Origin: Vulcanisaeta distributa DSM 14429 | Lineage (GTDB): Archaea; Thermoproteota; Thermoprotei; Thermoproteales; Thermocladiaceae | Direction of reading: 5' to 3' | Assembly (NCBI RefSeq): GCF_000148385.1 | Contig: NC_014537.1 | Coordinates: 2,190,001-2,222,000 of the forward strand | Length of the DNA: 32,000 nt | Shown: in pieces, positions 4,504 to 27,318 of the stretch | Layout: every line of letters starts with the position of its first letter | How positions within the stretch are numbered: position 1 is the first letter of the stretch | Notes under the pieces: generated by a model | Database searches by the model: none | What the model was told of the DNA's origin: nothing | What the model saw: the letters and a program-made list of their open reading frames with translations, nothing else | Position numbers and translations under genes: made by a program

Positions 4504-6385
4504 TGATTATGTAATCACCACTGCTAGATCCTCTATTACTTAATCCCTTAATTATTGACGCAATTATTATGAGAAGTGTCAACAAGCCAAATATTATCAA
4601 TAATGACTTAATACCCAGTGCCCCAAACGTCCAAACCCTAACATAGATGTTATCACCTGTTATATTTACTACGTAAACGTCACTTCCGTAAATAACCATA
4701 CCAATTGATGAATTAATAGGCACACAGTATTTACCTGGACCTACGTAGTATAAACTGCCAACATTTAATACGGCATTTGGTAATTCATTGTTTAGTAAGT
4801 CAACAGGCATGAAATTGATCATGTGTGGATTAATTACTAGGCTCCCTGGACTACTACCATTTATTGTTACTTCACGTTGATAGAGTAGCGATCCATTGCC
4901 GAGCAACTCCACCTGCACTTGACTGCCAATTATGGCATTGGGTATGCTTACCCACTGGTTATTACCATTTAATGGAATGGCGTATTGATCACCATCATAC
5001 TTAATTAATAATTCAAGATTTAAGTCTGGACATTCATTAGGTATTGATATGTTTAAGACGTAGTTAGAGAATATGGGGACCTTCAACGAGCTACCCTGGT
5101 AAATAGGGTTTGGGCCTAGGTTCATTAATTCACCATTCATTAATGCGTATATGTCGTAAGTACCTGGGTAAATACATGAGTCATTAGTGAATGGTATCAA
5201 CGTTCCATTAATGTTTAAGTATATCAGGGCATCCAATGAATTACCTGCTTCATCAATTATTGATACGTCTGAACGTGGGATTAAGGGGAGACTAACCGTG
5301 ATTTCTGACGTAGGTATTGAATTTAGGTAAATGCCTATGGTCTTTATACCGTTAATGGACACATACAATGCCCTAGTTAGTATGGGGTTTATCGTTAAGT
5401 TACTCGTTAAGCTCATAATTGAACCACTCCCCGTTGTTATGAATATGTTATTACACCTCAGCTCCTGCATTGATGTGCTAATTATGTTCACAGTAACTGG
5501 ATTAACCGACATATTGATCATGCAGTAGGGCGTGTATATTAGGTATGAAGTCCATGGCGTTATTCCTGGGATCCCTGGATTAGCCAATGTGCAGTTACTA
5601 TAGTGGTACTTAATCCATGGCGCGCCGGTGAGCATTATCATGGGATTTGACGAAACAGCTAATACTAGGTTCTGCGTATTGGTTATTGGTGCGTAATAAT
5701 ATGGCGTTATTACTATGTACGTCGTACCGTTAGCCGTAATATCTATATTGCTTGAGTATGTAATATACGTGGTTATTTCGGCATAAGTACTTATCGAGCC
5801 AATATTAACGTTCGAGTATTCCGTGCCTAACTCCGCCGTTAAGTAATTACCGACATTAGCCTCGGCGGGTAATATCGATACTAACTTAATAATTGAGAAC
5901 AGGTAATTTAACCCTGGGATTGATGGTATTGATATGTTCATGGAACCCTGAGTCAACGTATACGTAATACTAGAACCAGGTATTACCAAAGCCTCAAGTG
6001 GGTATGGACCATATGAACCAATACCAAGGTAAACGCCGTATACTGGTAATGAACAATTAACCTCCATACTAACGTACTTAGGACTATAATTAATGACGGG
6101 AACATTCAGTGATGAGCCATTGTACAACACCAAGGATGCAGATACTATTCCTAGGTTTGACAAAGGGTCAAGGTATGCATTAAATAATACGTTACCTCCC
6201 TGCGAGCAGTATTGATACATAGGTATTATTAATTGATTGCTTGTTATATTAATAATCTTAGTGTACGTATGATTATCATAGTAAATGTTAATGCCTATGT
6301 AATTAATGGTTACCTGCGCATAACTGAGAATGGGCAATACCAGGAATGCCGCAATAATAGCTATCCAAAGTACCTGCCTTATCAC
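4496..6385 (-). CDS. Secreted, C-terminally membrane-anchored, Asn/Ser/Thr/Tyr-rich surface (glyco)protein of unknown function
   Basis: N-terminal signal-like helix MIRQVLWIAIIAAFLVLPILSYA and C-terminal TM LLIIFGLLTLLIIIASII followed by a basic tail. I count about 17 N-x-S/T sequons by hand. Confidence 0.6.
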   Translation of the reverse strand: MIRQVLWIAIIAAFLVLPILSYAQVTINYIGINIYYDNHTYTKIINITSNQLIIPMYQYCSQGGNVLFNAYLDPLSNLGIVSASLVLYNGSSLNVPVINYSPKYVSMEVNCSLPVYGVYLGIGSYGPYPLEALVIPGSSITYTLTQGSMNISIPSIPGLNYLFSIIKLVSILPAEANVGNYLTAELGTEYSNVNIGSISTYAEITTYITYSSNIDITANGTTYIVITPYYYAPITNTQNLVLAVSSNPMIMLTGAPWIKYHYSNCTLANPGIPGITPWTSYLIYTPYCMINMSVNPVTVNIISTSMQELRCNNIFITTGSGSIMSLTSNLTINPILTRALYVSINGIKTIGIYLNSIPTSEITVSLPLIPRSDVSIIDEAGNSLDALIYLNINGTLIPFTNDSCIYPGTYDIYALMNGELMNLGPNPIYQGSSLKVPIFSNYVLNISIPNECPDLNLELLIKYDGDQYAIPLNGNNQWVSIPNAIIGSQVQVELLGNGSLLYQREVTINGSSPGSLVINPHMINFMPVDLLNNELPNAVLNVGSLYYVGPGKYCVPINSSIGMVIYGSDVYVVNITGDNIYVRVWTFGALGIKSLLIIFGLLTLLIIIASIIKGLSNRGSSSGDYIIIK

Positions 6386-18388: not shown

Positions 18389-18868
18389 TCATTTGTTGAC
18401 CTTTACAAAAACCATTCCCGAGACGATCACCTCCTCAATAACACCATCATTTAGTAATTGATTATAGATTAATCGCCAATTATCAGAAACATTACTACTG
18501 AGCCACTCCTCAAATTGGGGCTTTGGTATCATTCCCTGAATCTCACTCTTCATTTTATCCACAAGTCTCTGAAGATTCAATTTATTACCTCTACCATTAC
18601 CCGAATCGTTAATACCATTCCTGGCATTATCAGCCACGGAATTCTCAATAACCCTCCTCTTTATATAAAACGTGCCATCTAACGTACTATACATTACCTC
18701 AAAGAAGCCAGACCTACTCAATTTATTTATTAAATCAATATTCATCTTTATACCCAGTAAGTGCTCCACCTCTTCAATACTAACCCACCTATCATCAATA
18801 ACCCCCATCAACCTTTTTATCAAATCGTCACTTACTACCAATGTCATGCGTGAAGTGTTGCGTACCAA
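18389..18868 (-). CDS. Hypothetical protein, possibly wHTH-containing, with a central Asn/Gly-rich linker
   Basis: ORF only. The segments VSIEEVEHLLGIKMNIDLINKLSRSGFFEV and NARNGINDSGNGRGN are the basis for the description. Confidence 0.45.
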   Translation of the reverse strand: MVRNTSRMTLVVSDDLIKRLMGVIDDRWVSIEEVEHLLGIKMNIDLINKLSRSGFFEVMYSTLDGTFYIKRRVIENSVADNARNGINDSGNGRGNKLNLQRLVDKMKSEIQGMIPKPQFEEWLSSNVSDNWRLIYNQLLNDGVIEEVIVSGMVFVKVNK

Positions 18869-18905: not shown

Positions 18906-19625
18906 ATGATTACCTCCTACAAGGTACCCACCGTACTAGTGATTGGTAGAGTGGGTAAGGAATTAGCCGTGTGGAGCATTGATGGGACCACCACGACTCT
19001 AGGCAACATTAACGGTATTGAGTTAGTTAATGAACTTAAGGTGGATAGGCAGGTGACGGGTCACGTGGCCATTGCATCCTTTGGGCAATACGTGATTAAG
19101 GCCATGGACATGGGTAGTAGGTACGGCTCATACACATTAAGTGAGGATTCGCTTGTTAGGATACCCAGTAGGGGTGGTGTTGACCTTAGGAAGTACAATG
19201 ATTGGGTCACGATAAGGAATGCCTTCATACTAATTGGGGATCCAAATTCCGGTTATTCTGATTATTACCCATTAATATGTCCTTATAGGGTTGGTGATAC
19301 GTTATTCATAAACGCTGGATATGCGGGTTCAGGGAGTGTAAGGACTGTACTAACCATACTTGGGATACTGCGTAATTACGCTAGCATTGGTCGGGTAAAC
19401 ACATCCTGCATGTGCAGAATACCGTCGATGCCCCTGGAAATAGCCTTAATAAGTGGTGATAAGTACCTGCTGGTCAGGACGTACATGAATGATGGGCAAG
19501 CAGTAATGGGTAGTAAGTACCTAATCCTATTGACCAGGGGTGGTAATGTCATTAGCAAGTACTCAACAAATAATGACCCAATAGACGTAGTTGTTAAGAT
19601 GCTTAATGAAATGAGGAGTGCCTAG
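18906..19625 (+). CDS. Hypothetical protein
   Basis: ORF only, with no motif I recognise. Confidence 0.45.
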   Translation: MITSYKVPTVLVIGRVGKELAVWSIDGTTTTLGNINGIELVNELKVDRQVTGHVAIASFGQYVIKAMDMGSRYGSYTLSEDSLVRIPSRGGVDLRKYNDWVTIRNAFILIGDPNSGYSDYYPLICPYRVGDTLFINAGYAGSGSVRTVLTILGILRNYASIGRVNTSCMCRIPSMPLEIALISGDKYLLVRTYMNDGQAVMGSKYLILLTRGGNVISKYSTNNDPIDVVVKMLNEMRSA

Positions 19626-19673
19626 GAGAGTGTAAAAGTAAGGATTAATAGTGACAATGCGCCTTATTAAGTC

Positions 19674-20600
19674 GTGAGCATAAGCACAGGGCTTGAATTT
19701 GCAGCTGAGAATGTACTACCAATAATAAGGAGCTTAATTGCCAAGAGATTACTCGAGAGTGGGTATAGCCAACTCAGGGTGGCTAAGATACTCGGTGTAA
19801 CACAGCCGGCGGTTAATAGGTACGTGAGTAGGGATTACGATGAATTACTCAGTAAGGCCGAGTCACTGGGTATAAACAGGGATTGGGTGCTCGAGGTTGT
19901 CAAAAACGTTGTAGAGCTGGTGTTAAGTAGTAGGGAGTATGAGGCCCTCGAATACTTAACCAATGCCGTAATAATGGAGCTGGGCTCCTTAAGGCTATGC
20001 GATGCCCATAGAAGGCTCGTCCCATCATTACCCACGAATTGTAACGTATGCTCAGTGCTGATTACGGGCATTTCAGATTCAATAATTAAGAATGTGGAGA
20101 GGGCATTATCGATCCTTGAGGCTCATCCCGAAATTCAGGTTGTAATACCGAGGGTATTAATGAACATTGTTGAGGCAAAGCCCGGCGCGGTAACGGAGGA
20201 TGACGTTGTTGGCGTTCCTGGCAGGATTGACGCCCATGACGGGAGGGTCATCGTAGGCTCAAGACCAACCTATGGTGGGAGTAAGCACCTGGGCAGGTTA
20301 ATTATTAAGTGCATGAACGTGAACCCGAGGTATAGGTCCGTGGCGAGCATTAAGTACGATGAGAAGGTGGAGAATGCGCTTAGGGGGTTGGGAATTCATT
20401 ACGTGAAGGTGGGTCCTCATGAAAGTCCCAATGAGGATGAGGTCATTAGTGCTGTGGCTAATTCACTAATTAAAGACCCAACGCTCGAGGTTGTGATTGA
20501 CCTGGGTGGCTATGCCCTGGAGCCCGTCACCTACGTGTTTGGTCTTGACGCAATGGATGTGGCATTGAAGATTGTGAGGATAGCCTCAAGGATAACCTAA
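19674..20600 (+). CDS. HTH plus ThiN-like domain protein (ThiR-type thiamine-responsive regulator candidate, or thiamine-phosphate synthase ThiN fusion)
   Basis: N-terminal HTH ESGYSQLRVAKILGVTQPAVNRYV. The C-terminal ThiN-like blocks are MNIVEA, VVGVPGRI, YGGSKHLGR, RSVASIKYDE, and VIDLGGYALEPVTYVFG. Confidence 0.65.
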   Translation: MSISTGLEFAAENVLPIIRSLIAKRLLESGYSQLRVAKILGVTQPAVNRYVSRDYDELLSKAESLGINRDWVLEVVKNVVELVLSSREYEALEYLTNAVIMELGSLRLCDAHRRLVPSLPTNCNVCSVLITGISDSIIKNVERALSILEAHPEIQVVIPRVLMNIVEAKPGAVTEDDVVGVPGRIDAHDGRVIVGSRPTYGGSKHLGRLIIKCMNVNPRYRSVASIKYDEKVENALRGLGIHYVKVGPHESPNEDEVISAVANSLIKDPTLEVVIDLGGYALEPVTYVFGLDAMDVALKIVRIASRIT

Positions 20601-21514
20601 GCCTTCACCTTACTAATTAGGTAATTCACGATGTACTTGGCGGGGTTAATACCCGTGGCCCTCTTGAACCCCTGCCAGGACATTGTTGGATTAACCTCAA
20701 GTATGAAGTACCCATCCCTGGTCTCGGCGATGTCAACACCCCCATAATCAAGCCCAAGGACCTCAATGGCCTTTAATGCGAGCTCGCTTAATTCATTCGT
20801 GACCTTAGCAGGCTCGGGCCTAGCGCCCTGAGCCACATTACTCTTCCACGTAACGCCCCTCCTAAACTCGGCGCCTATTACCTCATTACCAACAACCACA
20901 ACCCTATAATCGCCATTGCCAACCTTATCAAGGAACCTCTGCACATACATCGGCTTATTCAGGTTTGTTAAGTAGCTGAATATGTGCATGGCAACATCAG
21001 CATCATCGACTTGAAAGACTCCAAAGCCCATGGCGCCCCTGATCTGCTTAATCACTGATTTACCGAACTCCTTAACCGTGTTATAGGCAACGAACATGTT
21101 CTCACTAACCACGGTATCTGGGACTGGCAACCCATGCTTAGCCAATAGCATTAACGATATGAACTTATCACCGGCCATCATCCAATTCAGGACTGGGTTC
21201 ATTACATAAATGCCATTAAGCTCGAAAGCCCTGACAACCCATAACCTATGCACAAACTGCTCAAAGTCCCTTATCACCCCTATATGCCTAAGTATTGCAC
21301 CTGATACGTTTAACTCCTCATAATTAGACCTACCAATTAATTGATAATAATCAATGCGACCCCTACCAAACCTGACACCAACCATGTCTATGTAAATCCT
21401 CCTAACCCTATGACCTAAGGACCTAATGGCATCCTCTAAATCAACCACATCCTCAGGGTTATACTCAACCTCATACGGCCTAATGATGCCAATATCCACA
21501 GCACGCCACCTCAA
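20597..21514 (-). CDS. RimK/LysX-family ATP-grasp ligase
   Basis: ATP-grasp blocks: KFISLMLLAKHGLPVPDT, SVIKQIRGAMGFGV, DYRVVVVG, and GLDYGGVDIAETRDGYFILEVNPTMSW. Confidence 0.8.
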   Translation of the reverse strand: MRWRAVDIGIIRPYEVEYNPEDVVDLEDAIRSLGHRVRRIYIDMVGVRFGRGRIDYYQLIGRSNYEELNVSGAILRHIGVIRDFEQFVHRLWVVRAFELNGIYVMNPVLNWMMAGDKFISLMLLAKHGLPVPDTVVSENMFVAYNTVKEFGKSVIKQIRGAMGFGVFQVDDADVAMHIFSYLTNLNKPMYVQRFLDKVGNGDYRVVVVGNEVIGAEFRRGVTWKSNVAQGARPEPAKVTNELSELALKAIEVLGLDYGGVDIAETRDGYFILEVNPTMSWQGFKRATGINPAKYIVNYLISKVKA

Positions 21515-21589
21515 AACCTCCTTTTATTAATTAGCCCAGGTAATAATCACTAAATATGGGAGAAATGTATACGTGAAGTAAACGTATAC

Positions 21590-22933
21590 TCACCTAAACT
21601 TAATTTTACTAAGATCGATAGAGGCAGGAATAACCCCCTTCCTAAACCTACTCGCGTCAGAATTAAGGGGTCTCGTTGCATCAATACCAACCTTAGTGGT
21701 TATGCCCTGCACAGGGTCGATGGCCACGGGATCTAACGTCGAACCCCTGGCATACTTAATGAGTACTAAATCCTCATCAGCCCTAAACCTAGTCGCTATC
21801 GCCCACTCAACCTCACTTGGGTCATCAATGTTTATATCATCATCCACGATAATCACGTGTTTAAGGCTTGGATGCGCCGCGAAGGCTGCCATGATTGCGT
21901 TCTTGGGGTCACCATCACTCTGCTTCCTAATGGCAACAACCGCGTGTAGCCATCCACAACCACCGTCAGTGAGCCTCACTGCCTTAACCTCAGGGACTAC
22001 GTTACTAACAAACTGCCAAATCTTAGCCTCCTTCTCAATACCCATCAGTAGTTTATGCTCAGAATAACCGGCCACGAGCGCTTGGGCGATTAATGGGTTA
22101 TCTCTCCTGATATAAACCCTCGTGATTCTAACGATGGGTTGCTCCCTAACCTCGTCATACGTACCCAATACGTCCATGCACGGCCCCTCCCTAGCCGTCT
22201 CCCTAGCCGATATGTAGCCCTCCATCACGACCTCCGCATACACGGGCGCAGGTACTCCATTGTCCAGGACCTTAACCTTAAGTGACCCGTCAAGCAGGGC
22301 ATTGGCCATGTTTAACTCGAAGACGCCGAAGGGTGGTGATGAGGCTGCGGCAACCAGGATGGCTGGGTGTAGGCCCCATGAAATGGATATGGGCGTGTCC
22401 TTACCAATTTCCCTATTTCTCACGTAAATCCTATATAAATGCCTGGGCACAAGTCTAATGACGAATTTATCAGGGCCTATTGGGGTTAGCCTATGGATAC
22501 TCGCGTTTAATATGCCATCCCTAACATCCATCCCAACCACAACGGCACTCGTTAAGCAGGGTCCCGGCTCGAGTTCGAAGTACCTGGGTATGGGCATTCT
22601 TGTTAGGTCAACGTTAGGCAGTGGTTCGTAAACGGCATTATTCGTTTCTGAAGGCTTATAGGATGGTGCGACATCCTCAGCCCAAAGAAGCTTCCTGTAA
22701 AACTCAATATCACTCCTTACATTGAGTGCCCTGTATACCTTATCCCTGGTGTTAACGACATTACCAACCACGTGGACCTCCTTAAACTCACGCACATTTG
22801 TGAACTCCAGGGCTGGTCCTTTATCGAACCGCGTGATTACGTACGGTATTTCATAGTTAATACTCAATTCCTCATCAACGAACTTCAAAATGCCCTCATT
22901 CCTCAGGTCCATTAGGAATTTCCTTAGATCCAT
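21590..22933 (-). CDS. UbiD-family (prenyl-FMN dependent) decarboxylase
   Basis: UbiD-like length and blocks: NASIHRL, ISISWGLHP, LLDGSLKV, EGPCMDVLGTYD, and VVAIRKQ. Confidence 0.85.
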   Translation of the reverse strand: MDLRKFLMDLRNEGILKFVDEELSINYEIPYVITRFDKGPALEFTNVREFKEVHVVGNVVNTRDKVYRALNVRSDIEFYRKLLWAEDVAPSYKPSETNNAVYEPLPNVDLTRMPIPRYFELEPGPCLTSAVVVGMDVRDGILNASIHRLTPIGPDKFVIRLVPRHLYRIYVRNREIGKDTPISISWGLHPAILVAAASSPPFGVFELNMANALLDGSLKVKVLDNGVPAPVYAEVVMEGYISARETAREGPCMDVLGTYDEVREQPIVRITRVYIRRDNPLIAQALVAGYSEHKLLMGIEKEAKIWQFVSNVVPEVKAVRLTDGGCGWLHAVVAIRKQSDGDPKNAIMAAFAAHPSLKHVIIVDDDINIDDPSEVEWAIATRFRADEDLVLIKYARGSTLDPVAIDPVQGITTKVGIDATRPLNSDASRFRKGVIPASIDLSKIKFR

Positions 22934-22976
22934 CAATTCTGCGTTAATTTTGAAGTAAAATAGTTTTTCCGTGTTG

Positions 22977-23954
22977 TTAGAATTGGTGTTGTGGTTTTAG
23001 TTTTATGCCTATGCCCGGTGTTTCTGGTACGTAGACCTTACCATTCTTGGCATACATTATTGACTTTGGCTCATCGAATACATCGAATATTGCACTCCTC
23101 AGTGGGTTGTCTGGTGCCGTGTACTCAATCCATAGGGTGCCTGGCTTTGCGGCAACCAGGTGTGCACTGACTATTGGCATTAGGTGTGGTGAGACTGGTA
23201 TCCCATAGGCCCTAGCCAACGCCCAAACCCTAAGCCACTCCGTAATACCACCAACATGACCAACATCAGGCTGGACAAAATCCACAGCCTCACTCTCGAG
23301 GAGTAATTTAAAGTCATAGACCGTGTGATGCTGCTCACCGGCGGCAATGGGTATTCCACAAACCCTCCTCAACCTCCTGTAACCCTCCAGGTTGTCTGGG
23401 TGCACGGGCTCCTCAATCCAGAATAATTCATACCTCTCCCACCTCCTGCACATCCTGGTTGCTAGGTTTAGGTCGTAGGTGCCGTTTAGGTCAACCATCA
23501 ACTTAACATCAGGCCCAACGGCCTCCCTAACGGCTTTAATACGCTCGGTAGCCTCCTCAGGACTAACCGCCGTTAAGGAGCCCCTAATCTTAACAGCATC
23601 AAAGCCTTGTTTAACATACTCAAGGGCCTTGGCCGCAAGCTCCCTAGGTGGTAGTTGATGGGCTGTGTTTGCGTATGTCGGGACCTCACTCCTATAACCA
23701 CCGAGTAATCTCCAAAGGGGCTTATTAACCTCCTTAGCCAGTAGGTCCCAAATGGCTATGTCAACACCACTAATTGCGTGAATCACAAAACCCCTCCTAC
23801 CCCACCTCGTGAGTCTTTGGAATAACTCATCCCAAATCGCCTCGTACTCCGTGGTATCCCTACCAACAACAAACCTGGCAATAACCCTCCTAATGAACTC
23901 AGCGAGTAGGTCTGAGAAGTACACACCCTCCTTAATGTGGTGGTAATCAGTCAC
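22977..23954 (-). CDS. Enolase-superfamily enzyme (mandelate racemase/muconate lactonizing, sugar-acid dehydratase-like). The N-terminal capping domain looks truncated or frameshifted, so this is a likely pseudogene.
   Basis: AISGVDIAIWDLLAKEVNKPLWRLLGG, metal ligands in MVDLNG, FWIEEP and AAGEQ. The listed ORF begins with GTG about 40 aa short of typical family members. The upstream sequence continues in-frame only to the TAA at 23985-23987, then resumes in another frame up to the ATG at 24046. Confidence 0.75.
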   Translation of the reverse strand: MTDYHHIKEGVYFSDLLAEFIRRVIARFVVGRDTTEYEAIWDELFQRLTRWGRRGFVIHAISGVDIAIWDLLAKEVNKPLWRLLGGYRSEVPTYANTAHQLPPRELAAKALEYVKQGFDAVKIRGSLTAVSPEEATERIKAVREAVGPDVKLMVDLNGTYDLNLATRMCRRWERYELFWIEEPVHPDNLEGYRRLRRVCGIPIAAGEQHHTVYDFKLLLESEAVDFVQPDVGHVGGITEWLRVWALARAYGIPVSPHLMPIVSAHLVAAKPGTLWIEYTAPDNPLRSAIFDVFDEPKSIMYAKNGKVYVPETPGIGIKLKPQHQF

Positions 23955-23993
23955 ATAACCAATACCCTCACTACTCTCGGTACATTAATCTCT

Positions 23994-24010
23994 CTAGTGA
24001 CGGTCACTAG
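23994..24010. repeat. Perfect 17-bp palindrome CTAGTGAC-G-GTCACTAG
   Basis: Read directly: 8-bp arms with a 1-nt centre, overlapping the left 15-nt boundary repeat. Confidence 0.9.
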
Positions 24011-24106
24011 CACCGGCAATTGAGCCTCAACGGTTTGCATCGCCATAGTGGTGCAATAGGTGCTGTGGAGTGGTTTTTGAAGGTTTGTCCATTGAGGTGG
24101 AAGCCA

Positions 24107-24188
24107 TTTTAATCATTGTAATTATTAATTGAACATTGTTTCGTTGTGCCTAGGTTTGGGAGAATTTTGTTCTATGTTTGTTTCGTTG
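24107..24188 (+). repeat. Copy 1 of an 82-bp G+T-rich direct repeat beginning with the TATA-like TTTTAATC
   Basis: Manual alignment with 24239-24320 gives roughly 80 percent identity and a 132-bp period. Confidence 0.8.
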
Positions 24189-24238
24189 TTTGTGTGTATG
24201 CGTTGTGTTTCTTCCTGAATCCCAATTTTTCACAATCT

Positions 24239-24320
24239 TTTTAATCACTGTGATTATTTATTGGGTGTTGTTTTGTTGCGCCTGGGTTTGGGGAATTTTG
24301 TTTATTGGTTTTGTTTGCTG
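24239..24320 (+). repeat. Copy 2 of the 82-bp G+T-rich direct repeat; contains the palindrome AATCAC-T-GTGATT (24243-24255)
   Basis: Manual alignment with 24107-24188. Confidence 0.8.
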
Positions 24321-24523
24321 TAGGTGGCGAGGTACTGCGCCGGCTCCTTGAGGAGTTTGCCAGCCTCGCTACTCAGTGTGTCGGAGACCCTCATGTTCCT
24401 CGACCTCGATGCGACGTAGGTCATCGCCTGGAACAGCGCCTCCGCATTCATTCCAAACTCCTCGACGTAGTCACTGAGCGCGGCATCCAGCTTTAAGGCA
24501 TACTTAAGACCAACCTTCCCCCA
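24302..24523 (-). pseudogene. Decayed small ribbon-helix-helix (CopG-like) ORF
   Basis: The stop-to-stop frame reads GLKYALKLDAALSDYVEEFGMNAEALFQAMTYVASRS..., a strand-helix-helix pattern. No canonical start precedes the strand. An ATGATG sits one frame off at 24527-24522, and the first in-frame ATG is at 24451. Confidence 0.35.
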
Positions 24524-24536
24524 TCATCGCCCCTAG

Positions 24537-24824
24537 CCAGTTCCTGACCATCGCTTTGGGACGTTTGGAGGGAACTGGTTAAGAGGGAAAAATGCTGTCG
24601 CGTGCAGGGACGAGGATGGTGCAAGATACCGCATTATTAAGTCGAGGGACAACGAGGGGAACATAGCATACGCATTGATCGACCATGACGACGAGGTCGC
24701 AGTCGTATGTAGGTATTACCCCGACGAGTTACAACTCCTCTACTGCGGCTATGCACTGAGGGCCGCGGTTCACTTCATGAACATTAATGGCGAGGTCATT
24801 GAAGAGGACCAAGCACACCGCTGA
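24537..24824 (+). pseudogene. Start-less 95-codon ORF of unknown function (possible gene remnant)
   Basis: The stop-to-stop frame reads ...NAVACRDEDGARYRIIKSRDNEGNIAYALIDHDDEVAVVCRYYPDELQLLYCGYALRAAVHFMNINGEVIEEDQAHR. The first ATG/GTG/TTG in frame is the TTG at 24675. Confidence 0.3.
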
Positions 24825-24859
24825 ACCCCACTTTCCAATGCCCTATTAAAATTACCGCA

Positions 24860-24868
24860 TTTTTAAAG
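24860..24868 (+). promoter_or_regulatory. TATA-like box TTTTTAAAG centred about 26 nt upstream of the 24890 ATG (leaderless-type promoter)
   Basis: The sequence and its spacing are typical of crenarchaeal leaderless promoters. Confidence 0.45.
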
Positions 24869-24889
24869 ACATGCGCTGGGAAAGTATCG

Positions 24890-26443
24890 ATGAGCGAGAA
24901 GGACCTGGTAATGGAGTCGGAAATCAAGTCCGTGGGCCCTGGGCAATTGAAAGTATGCTGGGGCGTCAAGGTCGAGGGCGGTAAGCGATTAGGGTGCGGT
25001 GAGGAGGTCAGTGATCCGAAAATAATCGGGGAAGTGATGAAGTTGATTAACGAGTTCATGAGGAGGGTCGAGAGACGCAAGGATGTATTGTTGAGTGAGT
25101 CGAACACACCATTCGACAGGGCAATCAACGAACTAAGCAGCTGGCTGACGCTGGTGGAAACGAAGGTTAAGGAGATCAACGATGAAAACATCGTAAAGAT
25201 GAGGAGGGCAATGATAAACATTGGCGAGAAAATGCTCACGTTAGCAAAACAAGCTCGCGAGAAATGGCTGAAAACATACCGAAGAGAACTCGAGAAATTA
25301 ATCGAAAAGTTAAGGAGAAATGAAACGACAATAATTATAACAGGAGAACCTTCCAATAAAAACAAGAGCTTTACGGCACATCTGTATACGAAGCACCTAT
25401 CAATCAAAATAACTAGGGTCAGAGGAAGTAGCGTAACAATAAACATATCATTGGTTGGCTCTAGGGGTATTAGCGTCGTAACTCCCAGGTTGTTTGGTGA
25501 TGACGTGCTCAAGCCCATGCGTTATGGTTTGATCATGACCGATGGATCGATTGATAAAAGGGGCTACTTAGTGATGAACACCAACCAGCTTTGGCAGTCT
25601 GTGATGTGGATACTGACATGGCCTGGGAGAAATGGTATGCGTATACATGCCGTGGGTCTCAATGAGGCTGGTATCAATGTCATGTGGTCCTTAATGGCCG
25701 TCGACCATAGGAGTGAGTTCGTGAGTAAGGCTAAGGTCGCCGAGGAGGTTTCTAAGCTTAGTGATGAGGAGAAATTTCTAACGTTCCTATTGACTGCTAT
25801 TCTTGGAGATGGTAATATCGATATCATTAATAAGACAGTCAGGCTCGTGATTGGCGGTTCAAAGCATGAGTTGTGGAGGGGCATTATCGATAGGATGAGG
25901 GCCCTCGGCTTCAGGGATATTGATCAGAAAGTCGTTAAACACTATAGTATTAATAGCTCGAAGGCCGTCGAGCTCGCTAGGAAGTGGCTTAGCAACCCGA
26001 TGATTAAGGCTTTGGTTGAGGACTTGGCCCTGTTACCTGACGCCGAAAAACTCAGAAACATAATTGCACTGGCTAGTGCGAAGGTTAAGCCGATAGGTAG
26101 GTCGTCAGTTGAGGTCGCCGGCGTTAGGATGAGCGTGCACATTAATAATGAAGGATACGTGGAGTTAAGAATCAGGCGTAAAAGGCTTGAGGATGCCAGG
26201 GCAGTCCTGGAAAGACTAAGGAATGCGGGTTACAATGCCGAGTTGAGGGAGTATGGTGGGAGGTTCGAGGTCCACATAAGCCAGGACGAAATCAAGAGAC
26301 ACCTGGAGTTAGTTGTTAAGGTCTGTGAGGTGCTTAGGAGGATGCATGAGGAGGCAGTAGGTGAGGGCAACACCGAGAGAGCTTGGGCAACAGCCAAGGC
26401 AATGGCAAACCTAAACTGCCCCACCCAGGACCCACGGGCCTAA
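24890..26443 (+). CDS. 517-aa protein with a central two-motif LAGLIDADG-type (homing-endonuclease-like) core, an N-terminal charged coiled-coil region and a C-terminal extension
   Basis: Motif 1 [14 protein letters not shown] (aa 209-222, nt 25514-25555). Motif 2 [17 protein letters not shown] (aa 296-312, nt 25775-25825). D218 and D307 are 89 residues apart. Confidence 0.6.
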
Positions 26444-26484
26444 AATCCCTCTTTCCCAATTTTAATCTCGCTAGTGGGCCATAC

Positions 26485-26895
26485 TTGAGTGCCGTTATTA
26501 CGCGGACCCTACCACCAACCTTCTCCTTAATTCTAACGGCCCGTGGCTTTGGTGGGCCTGGTGTTGAGCATGCCGTTGATGGTATCATTAGAGTGGACCT
26601 TGATGAGATAGATGGTAAGTTGTATAGGTCAATAATTGTTTGGAAGATGAGGGATACTAAGATCTCGATGGTTAGGCATCCAATGGATATAACCGATGAG
26701 GGTGTCGTTATTTACTGGGACAAGTACCTAAAGTTAACAGCAACCTCAGCATCAATACAGCCGTTACCCAAGGAGGAAGTTGATGAAATGAGGAAGGCTA
26801 TTGAGGAAACGGAGAAAGCAACCAAAGAAGTTAAGGCCATAACGCGTGAAACTCATTTGCAGAACCAAAATCCGGAATCTCAAGACCAGCCCTAA
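26485..26895 (+). pseudogene. C-terminal remnant of a KaiC/RecA-superfamily ATPase (P-loop half missing)
   Basis: [65 protein letters not shown] matches only the C-terminal third of archaeal KaiC-like ATPases. No Walker A or B is present upstream. There is a possible TTG start at 26485. Confidence 0.6.
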
Positions 26896-26983
26896 AAACC
26901 CCAACCCTAACCTCCCTAATCCTCATAATTGATGCAATCCTTTCCCTCACTTATAAATAATATGAATATAACTTGTTCAACGC

Positions 26984-27172
26984 TTATCGGGCCCTAACCT
27001 GCTCAAATATCGTATAGCCGCACTTGCCACAAGCCCATCTAGGCACAGGGACTTTGTGATATGCCATTACCGAGCCACATCTTGGGCAGATCCTCCTTAG
27101 AAACTTTATTGTACCCTTTTCATAATCAACCTCATACCACGTATGCGCCCGTGCTTTCACTTCCTTGGGCAT
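26984..27172 (-). CDS. rps27ae: Ribosomal protein S27ae (eS31)
   Basis: 62 aa with the zinc ribbon CPRCGS...CGKCGYT. Confidence 0.9.
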   Translation of the reverse strand: MPKEVKARAHTWYEVDYEKGTIKFLRRICPRCGSVMAYHKVPVPRWACGKCGYTIFEQVRAR

Positions 27173-27263
27173 TCAGGCATGGTCCTAACACATCCCTTAT
27201 AAGATTTTTCCTTCGTAGGTCATGAACCATAAACACTTATAAGGGCTCGATGAATCATTACTT

Positions 27264-27318
27264 ACGATGATTGATGTGGCCAGGGCTGAGAGGTGATGTA
27301 AGGTCTCCCTTCCTGATA
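27264..27318 (+). ncRNA. C/D-box sRNA candidate
   Basis: C-like box ATGATTG 27267-27273, 12 nt, D' CTGA 27286-27289, linker, C' GTGATGT(A) 27293-27300, 12-13 nt, D box CTGA 27313-27316. Confidence 0.6.

Follow-up and report, generated by a model that had tools for sequence, protein, structure and literature searches.

An inserted cassette encoding a predicted LAGLIDADG-fold protein splits an enolase-superfamily gene in Vulcanisaeta distributa

We examined a 32-kb stretch of the Vulcanisaeta distributa chromosome (the window, whose positions serve as coordinates throughout), in which an earlier reading of the letters alone, the original prediction, had described a compositionally foreign 2.5-kb island bounded by a 15-nt direct repeat and by two genes without 5' ends. 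Comparison with a relative that lacks the additional DNA showed that an insertion of ~2.87 kb (~23979-26851) splits an enolase-superfamily, sugar-acid dehydratase-like gene between codons 25 and ~34. The long open reading frame (ORF) of this insert encodes a 517-amino-acid (aa) protein for which we confidently predict a homing-endonuclease fold of the double-LAGLIDADG type, in which the two metal-binding acidic residues are kept. Alignment of its relatives indicates that the family is multi-copy, positionally variable between strains and recombining. The explanation that we favour, and to which we attach moderate probability, is that a selfish, free-standing homing-endonuclease-type cassette was copied into the dehydratase gene by break repair, dragging with it the flanks of an earlier location.

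The comparison set consisted of 25 fetched related loci (~230 kb). Among these, L021 is a Logan assembly contig of SRR6311221 from a related Vulcanisaeta with ~80% DNA identity to the window, L004 (GCA_001316145.1) derives from a close relative and is 92-97% identical to the window, L024 and L025 are V. souniana loci, L006 belongs to strain JCM 16159 and L031 to the complete JCM 16161 genome. The JCM drafts (L004, L025 and others) show length differences in C/G homopolymers (e.g. CCCCC versus CCCCCCCC) and contain many split gene calls, and because of these homopolymer errors the apparent frameshifts in them are not usable as evidence of pseudogenisation.

The empty site is found in L021. Collinearity of this contig with the window extends over more than 10 kb (MR/MLE, UbiD, RimK-like, ThiN and onward), and its intact MR/MLE gene starts 56 nt after the ribosomal protein S27ae gene. 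In filled and empty alleles alike, S27ae is the gene resident upstream of the dehydratase gene. Window 18926-23974 aligns by blastn to L021 6000-940, and window 26853-27302 to L021 907-470. The nearest homolog of the larger dehydratase piece is the intact 367-aa protein of this contig (P0177), aligned over residues 34-367 at 95-96% aa identity; dehydratase-like residues 1-25 are encoded on the minus strand at 26926-26852, and residues 26-33 of P0177 (MVVVKVIG) are without counterpart in the window. The target therefore lost about 8 codons (~24 nt) and underwent zero duplication. No target-site duplication was present at the junctions relative to L021, and no terminal inverted repeats beyond chance were found at the ends of the insert or of the 2.48-kb unit between the 15-nt repeats. 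As the empty allele is ~20% divergent, the left junction can be placed only to ~6 nt. L004 carries the same insertion with the same junctions, yet has a single copy of a 132-nt repeat of which there are two in the window and in L025, the window and L025 being nearly identical here.

This comparison recasts the gene structure that had been proposed for the locus. The left-hand reading was accurate: the frame of the enolase-family gene is open to 23984 and ends at an in-frame TAA (23985-23987), the first possible start is GTG at 23954, which would give a truncated dehydratase of 325 aa, and Pfam matches MR_MLE_C in full and MR_MLE_N only from profile position 41 (the best NCBIfam match, archaeal arabinonate dehydratase, is below cut-off). 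An insertion or replacement in the shared upstream region of two divergent genes had been envisaged, but the true right flank of the insertion is the 5' end of the same dehydratase gene. The proposed search of relatives for an empty site was rewarded with an intact enolase-superfamily gene in L021; the intact KaiC-like gene that was expected beside it is absent from that locus. Thus the island does contain inserted DNA, but the bounds assigned to it were not those of the insertion, which extends 376 nt beyond the right repeat copy. The locus should be annotated as one split dehydratase gene with an insertion, rather than as two truncated genes around an island.

The piece of KaiC-like gene next to the right junction is cargo and not a damaged resident neighbour, since it is absent from the empty allele and hence part of the inserted DNA. 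The original prediction had rightly recognised that only the C-terminal part is represented (profile positions 167-231 of 231), though not its status, and had placed its beginning at the right repeat, whereas homology to full-length KaiC-like genes begins at 26533-26544, directly after the trailer of the long ORF, and reaches within a few codons of the natural C-terminus. The ORF that contains the fragment spans 26383-26895 (plus strand), is callable as 136 aa (TTG 26485 to 26895) and at its end reads into the antisense of the dehydratase 5' end. No remainder of the KaiC gene was found in the window. The ratio of non-synonymous to synonymous substitution rates (dN/dS) for the fragment was 0.035 against L028 and 0.55 against L004, the latter on 12 substitutions. 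The left segment of the insert was tried as the sequence lost from the 5' side at the KaiC breakpoint (LISLVTVTSTG resembling FISQVSVTERG) and rejected, as it has only ~46% identity to the DNA of L028, the closest KaiC homolog, and no local alignment.

Assignment of the long ORF to the LAGLIDADG type, already made in the original prediction, was confirmed by motifs, modelled fold and structural matches. The family alignment contains two LAGLIDADG-like helices with a spacing of ~90-100 residues, and at the end of each helix an acidic residue precedes a G; D218 is conserved in at least 90% of members and D307 (D307-G308) is invariant among the full-length ones. An AlphaFold2 (AF2) model on this alignment (predicted local distance difference test, pLDDT, 87.9; predicted template-modelling score, pTM, 0.73) gave residues 204-366 a secondary structure that fits the duplicated alpha-beta-beta-alpha-beta-beta-alpha fold. 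Around this core it placed an N-terminal beta-hairpin, a helical stalk of ~100 residues, a beta domain, and C-terminal alpha/beta and helical domains. The top Foldseek matches in the PDB were I-DmoI, I-Tsp061I, I-SceI, I-AniI and E-DreI (probability 1.0), inteins and WhiA (3hyi, 8dy9), with target-normalised template-modelling (TM) scores of 0.5-0.57 over ~190 residues to I-DmoI, I-Tsp061I and I-SceI; matches in BFVD (viral predicted structures) were LAGLIDADG endonucleases and inteins. Alignment by hhalign paired the second motif with the GDG of I-DmoI motif 1, with weak statistics. Neither Pfam, NCBIfam, PHROGs and PADLOC nor the PDB sequences returned a match to the protein. A dN/dS of 0.27-0.33 for the ORF indicates that the protein is maintained by purifying selection.

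Alignments to the related loci resolve the insert into a mosaic of four pieces (Table 1) of separate ancestry: a 135-nt left segment, a 2.3-kb module, a 94-nt trailer and the 314-nt KaiC 3' end. The left segment (23979-24113) is missing from the empty site and had no match among the fetched loci, the paralog loci included; its plus-strand RNA fold gave z = -1.7. On the minus strand, a self-complementary ATTAAT (23984-23989) in its repeat copy stands ~30 nt upstream of the GTG at 23954. The left end of the module that is common to V. souniana lies at ~24114, and window 24116-26439, comprising the tandem repeats, both small ORFs and the long ORF, aligns to L025 5214-7558. This homolog adjoins ThiC, a different genomic context, and the homology stops at the ORF stop codon. 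Window 24960-26537, the long ORF and 94 nt past its stop, aligns to L024 6008-7583, where homology in the trailer stops at an identical base and unrelated DNA follows in both. The right copy of the 15-nt repeat is thus internal to a trailer that travels with the ORF in L024. As a small RNA target the trailer was rejected (no Rfam hit, fold z +0.5 to +0.7), as it was as a PaREP1 remnant (no similarity to the neighbouring PaREP1 genes by tblastn), and neither tRNA nor Rfam families were detected in the insert.

The two small ORFs of the module, both decayed, are conserved in L004 and L025 (86-97% aa) and have no family match in Pfam, PHROGs or NCBIfam, nor any in PADLOC. The minus-strand ORF has two ATG codons just upstream, one base out of frame, and had been called ribbon-helix-helix-like; this label found no support, with no such family matched in Pfam (E up to 5), PHROGs or NCBIfam, and the beta-alpha-alpha pattern is an impression only. 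The plus-strand ORF is start-less as described: in L004 and L025 it runs for 83 aa from a TTG that is replaced by CTG (24575-24577) in the window, where an A-run is also 5 long against 4 in these relatives (aa identity 91-94%). TTTTTAAAGA is a candidate promoter of the long ORF, given that its distance from the ATG is the usual archaeal TATA-to-start spacing. The string TTTTAATC occurs only three times in the window, always within the insert (24107, 24239 and 26460). The TTAATC boxes at 23985, 24109, 24241 and 26462 are where they had been reported, but a fifth at 25298 corrects their count of four.

Table 1. Features of the split dehydratase locus and its insert (window coordinates)
Feature	Position	Strand	Basis or remark
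UbiD-family gene	21590-22936	-	neighbour left of the enolase-superfamily piece
Enolase-superfamily (MR/MLE, sugar-acid dehydratase-like) gene, 3' part from ~codon 34	22977-23978	-	Pfam, ortholog alignment
Left segment of insert, origin unknown	23979-24113	.	holds left repeat copy and palindrome
Left copy of 15-nt repeat, TTAATCTCTCTAGTG	23985-23999	+	~6 nt inside left junction of insertion
Perfect palindrome CTAGTGAC-G-GTCACTAG	23992-24008	.	in left segment
Two tandem T/G-rich units, each starting TTTTAATCA	24107-24326	+	period 132 nt; 88 nt aligned at 73%
Small ORF without in-frame start	24302-24523	-	sequence and translation
Small ORF lacking start codon	24537-24824	+	alignment to L004 and L025
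TATA-box-like element TTTTTAAAGA	24860-24869	+	centred ~26 nt upstream of long-ORF ATG
Intact 517-aa ORF	24890-26443	+	double-LAGLIDADG core (predicted); 100% identical to a V. distributa hypothetical protein
94-nt trailer of long ORF, ending ...CTCCTTAATTCTAAC (last bases TTCTAAC)	26444-26537	+	common to L024 7498-7583
Right copy of 15-nt repeat, TTAATCTCGCTAGTG	26462-26476	+	18 nt past long-ORF stop; 376 nt inside insertion
Captured 3' fragment of KaiC/RadA-like ATPase gene	26538-26851	+	Pfam KaiC 167-231 of 231; 314 nt
5' end (25 codons) of the same enolase-superfamily gene	26852-26926	-	blastn against L021, junction read-out, protein alignment
Ribosomal protein S27ae gene	26984-27172	-	Pfam Ribosomal_S27; synteny with L021
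Glycosyltransferase gene	beyond S27ae gene		window gene layout

Relatives of the 517-aa ORF numbered 27, all of them from Vulcanisaeta, in a word-indexed search and 199 cluster representatives in a profile search, many of them fragments. The named members are all Vulcanisaeta 'hypothetical proteins', barring one fragment of a metagenome-assembled genome binned as Infirmifilum, and no relatives were found in IMG/VR, INPHARED or PLSDB. At least 6 copies are present in V. distributa and at least 7 in JCM 16161. We recovered 16 loci from representative genomes, of which 9-10 lie at contig ends, in keeping with repeated DNA that breaks draft assemblies. For most copies similarity at the DNA level is limited to the ORF (46-68% aa identity), and many are truncated or decayed. 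Per 100 nt, the window is anywhere between 59% and 100% identical to L025, and the 600 nt at 24900-25500 diverge from L004 by 20-23% amid an otherwise 1-2% divergence; both patterns reflect gene-conversion tracts from paralogs.

A second pair of filled and empty sites was provided by L006 4550-6519 (1.97 kb with a family copy) and L004 16387-16516 (a 130-nt spacer). The L006 insert sits exactly at the 3' end of tRNA-Asp and carries the C-terminal remnant of another family copy (…QGPRAQ…), followed by a 5'-truncated tRNA-Phe-like gene (4663-4720), an order that mirrors the ORF-then-tRNA-Phe arrangement intact in L013. In both L006 and L013 only 9-30 nt separate the end of the family ORF from the 3' end of a tRNA. 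At L015:3768-6643 a family ORF is the sole recognisable gene of a 2.76-kb unit. On either side of the unit stands a direct repeat that corresponds to the final ~35 nt of a tRNA (19 perfectly matching nt and a further 15/16), and the right copy touches the ORF stop. The complete tRNA on the right, whose anticodon loop CTGTTAA suggests Asn by eye, carries 39 nt inserted into its T-arm, which are lacking from the left partial copy. A hidden integrase in this unit was looked for and rejected, as its stop-to-stop segments contain no Pfam domain. Direct repeats also flank the copies in L001 (19/21 nt) and L016 (18/21 nt), and 0/40 shuffles reached either. Unusual flanking repeats are present in only 4 of 13 copies, which rules them out as a universal feature of the family.

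Further family loci have neighbours of their own. At its contig end (113-310), L021 retains the remnant of a family C-terminus, ~160 nt past the region upstream of S27ae; it is 87.5% identical over 40 nt to window 26396-26435, which implies a present or former copy at a nearby site in this lineage. In L001:5959-8509 the V. distributa paralog P0010, flanked by the above 19/21 repeat at 4827 / 7605, is followed 40 nt on by a same-strand 307-aa ORF whose sole match is to the C-terminal MoCoBD_2 domain, profile position 24 onward; this ORF may be another captured or truncated gene tail. In L031:5001-8428 a short creatininase-family ORF (173 aa) precedes family copy P0007 (505 aa), and a convergent 512-aa ORF without a Pfam domain follows it; these may be another truncated neighbour and a second family member, respectively.

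Under the explanation that we favour, a double-strand break in the chromosomal dehydratase gene would start the event, and its repair would draw on another locus that bore a cassette, whose DNA would be copied or captured. At that donor the cassette would have lain inside a KaiC-like gene, and the copy would have run past the cassette's 3' end and brought the KaiC tail along. That the 517-aa protein itself makes the breaks is a reasonable proposal, because its catalytic residues are conserved. The deletion at the target, the lack of duplication and of inverted ends, and the captured KaiC tail all point to break repair rather than to transposition or clean site-specific integration. The insert of L006 likewise carries old flanks and so bears the same signature.

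Several observations weigh against this explanation. Classical homing requires long stretches of homology on the flanks and does not leave scraps behind, whereas the event here was ectopic and imprecise, and the role of the endonuclease in it is conjecture. The nuclease activity of the protein is a prediction from fold and motif, any target site is putative, and its sequence is unmatched in Pfam, NCBIfam and PHROGs (LAGLIDADG families, E <= 0.1) and among PDB sequences. A donor locus, with the 5' part of the KaiC gene beside a family copy, occurs in none of the fetched loci. The position of the left insert end within 6 nt of a repeat copy, and the 35-nt tRNA repeats of L015, fit a site-specific, attachment (att)-type mechanism better. 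Finally, the dN/dS of the dehydratase 3' part, 0.03 against L021 and 0.11 against L004, is in the latter comparison not what simple inactivation predicts: between the window and L004, which both bear the insertion, there are 18.5 synonymous and 7.5 non-synonymous changes, a ratio comparable to that of intact neighbours, and the substitutions concentrate at 23300-24100, near the junction. Possibly the truncated dehydratase is still used, with the insert perhaps supplying a promoter for the shortened gene; alternatively, the 23300-24100 patch may have been imported by recombination from a still-intact allele.

The 15-nt repeat is central to the first of the alternatives. The two 15-mers are exactly as originally described, in direct orientation, 14/15 identical and 2477 nt apart. 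The window contains no further copies at <=2 mismatches, and across the 25 loci the 15-mer recurs only in the orthologous locus of L004, with TTAATCTCCCTAGTG at the left-copy position, and in the homologous trailer of L024, which has a 12/15 version (TTAATTTCACTAGCG) in place of the right copy; this rarity shows that it is not a common promoter word, one of the outcomes that would have undermined the original prediction. A 14/15 match between the 40-nt left-junction zone and the rest of the insert was reached in 0/300 shuffles; when the comparison was widened to the 160 nt past the ORF and the 3 kb upstream, 2/40 shuffles reached it, so that the repeat is unusual, albeit picked out post hoc. 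No extended homology surrounds the two copies, the match being confined to the 15-mer. We infer that the repeat is a mark of the cassette, in which it lies in the trailer and at the leftmost end, rather than of the insertion's edges, and it may be a cleavage, recombination or promoter site.

On this alternative, a corrected form of the original prediction which we judge unlikely although it fares best among those considered, the mobile unit would be the 2.48 kb between the repeats, acting as attL and attR, and recombination would have taken place at their short shared core, by a recombinase in trans or by endonuclease-stimulated single crossover of a circular form. The unit would first have stood beside a KaiC gene elsewhere, and would have moved together with 376 nt of its old right flank via a break at the left att copy. 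The placement of the repeats, just past the ORF stop on one side and just inside the junction on the other, is in keeping with such sites, as are the tRNA repeats of the L015 unit, the proximity of ORF ends to tRNA 3' ends in L006 and L013, and the flanking repeats of L001 and L016. However, direct repeats exactly at both host junctions, such as the 35-nt tRNA repeats of L015, would be expected of att sites, and relative to the empty site the 15-nt repeats do not bound the insertion, the right copy lying well inside it. In L024 the right repeat and the 61 nt rightward of it travel with the ORF and have no upstream partner, and 9 of the 13 copies are without an unusual flanking repeat. No integrase, recombinase or transposase domain was detected in the insert or in the L015 unit (Pfam, PHROGs, NCBIfam), and no circular or excised form is known.

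Next in order, and likewise improbable in our judgement, is that the 517-aa family is neither selfish nor self-mobile but an ordinary, expanded host family of WhiA-like, LAGLIDADG-derived DNA-binding proteins, and that the insertion was a one-off illegitimate recombination or segmental duplication which moved a paralog with bits of its neighbourhood. WhiA is indeed among the best structural matches, the protein has large extra domains and is under purifying selection, homing-endonuclease sequence profiles do not match it, copies are absent from the viral and plasmid collections, and the junctions resemble imprecise break repair. A passive origin is less easily reconciled with conservation of both LAGLIDADG acidic residues, with two independent filled/empty polymorphisms in a small sample, with the many truncated or decayed copies, with copies beside tRNA 3' ends and tRNA fragments, or with rampant gene conversion.

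More doubtful again is the possibility that these loci represent a new kind of minimal archaeal mobile element, a 2-3-kb cassette in which a multi-domain LAGLIDADG protein, the only enzyme, would double as the nuclease for integration. Its target would be a short specific site, TTAATCTCNCTAGTG here and the 3' end of a tRNA in some other subfamilies; the cassette would enter by recombination at its own short copy of that site, leaving direct repeats, and the endonuclease gene would always abut the right-hand repeat.

The literal model of the original prediction, replacement of the shared upstream region of the enolase-family and KaiC genes by a foreign 2.5-kb island, would explain why both gene pieces lack 5' parts and face the island, but we give it virtually no credence, since it is ruled out by the empty site of L021, with the enolase-family 5' end present on the far side, no KaiC gene in the empty allele and a composition within the local range. 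The G+C (GC) counts on which foreignness had been based (36, 32 and 20 of 60) are exact on recount; the comparison line of 20/60 (18421-18480), however, lies in the lowest 9% of 60-nt lines. The island has a GC content of 47.6% against 44.2% for the window, at the 87th percentile of equal-sized windows, and the adjoining host genes at 21.6-24 kb are equally GC-rich. Its tetranucleotide distance from the window average is no higher than that of neighbouring host genes. Sliding GC, window percentiles and tetranucleotide distance are all within the local range, and compositional foreignness was rejected.

Outside the insertion, window 27244-27300, between the S27ae and glycosyltransferase genes, contains C/D-box-like elements (GATGATTGA ... 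CTGA ... GTGATG ... CTGA) and is nearly invariant relative to the ~80%-identical L021. Rfam gave a weak sR4 C/D-box match to this segment (18 bits, E 0.6).

If the favoured explanation is true, this family would constitute a previously undescribed lineage of free-standing LAGLIDADG genes in hyperthermophilic Thermoproteales, which spread in chromosomes, interrupt metabolic genes, are shuffled by gene conversion and carry gene fragments with them. At least one family of repeated 'hypothetical protein' genes in Vulcanisaeta genomes would thereby be explained, and its members would be a source of thermostable meganuclease scaffolds with novel accessory domains. Concrete candidate target sites come from the filled/empty pairs.

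Like insertion sequences and miniature inverted-repeat transposable elements, the family is multi-copy, interrupts genes and breaks assemblies; unlike them, it has no transposase domain, terminal inverted repeats or target-site duplication, and its copies share the ORF only, at 46-68% aa identity. With the tRNA-targeting elements of Crenarchaeota (SSV-type and pNOB8-type integrases) it shares the location of some copies at tRNA 3' ends, and the L015 repeats are like attL and attR, but the 1.9-2.9-kb family units contain no tyrosine recombinase or other recognisable gene, and the window copy lies in a protein-coding gene with a 15-nt repeat that does not bound the insertion. WhiA, in which a LAGLIDADG scaffold is fused to extra domains as in the 517-aa protein, is single-copy and conserved in position and is not known to retain the catalytic acidic residues, whereas the 517-aa family keeps both of these residues and is multi-copy and positionally variable.

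The LAGLIDADG homing endonucleases of archaea (I-DmoI, I-Tsp061I, I-Vdi141I; PI-type inteins) share with the predicted structure a monomeric double-motif core with an acidic residue ending each helix, and they share with the family a selfish, patchily distributed behaviour. The window gene differs from them in being free-standing, with a promoter-like element, start and stop of its own, outside any rRNA or tRNA intron or intein. Its 517-aa product has ~200 N-terminal and ~150 C-terminal extra residues and no profile match, and its insertion was imprecise and ectopic, not into a cognate allele. The two papers in the literature searched that name both Vulcanisaeta and LAGLIDADG concern rRNA-intron enzymes only (PMC2602781, PMC4496867). 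The free-standing homing endonuclease genes of phages and organelles resemble the window cassette in standing alone within or between host genes, in their presence or absence among relatives and in spreading by break repair, and LAGLIDADG endonuclease genes of phages and archaeal viruses are among the structural matches of the 517-aa protein. In contrast to these genes, copies of the family were not found in the viral or plasmid collections searched; it occurs in an archaeal chromosome as many diverged paralogs with captured earlier flanks, and may thus provide an archaeal chromosomal example of a lifestyle known mainly from phages and organelles.

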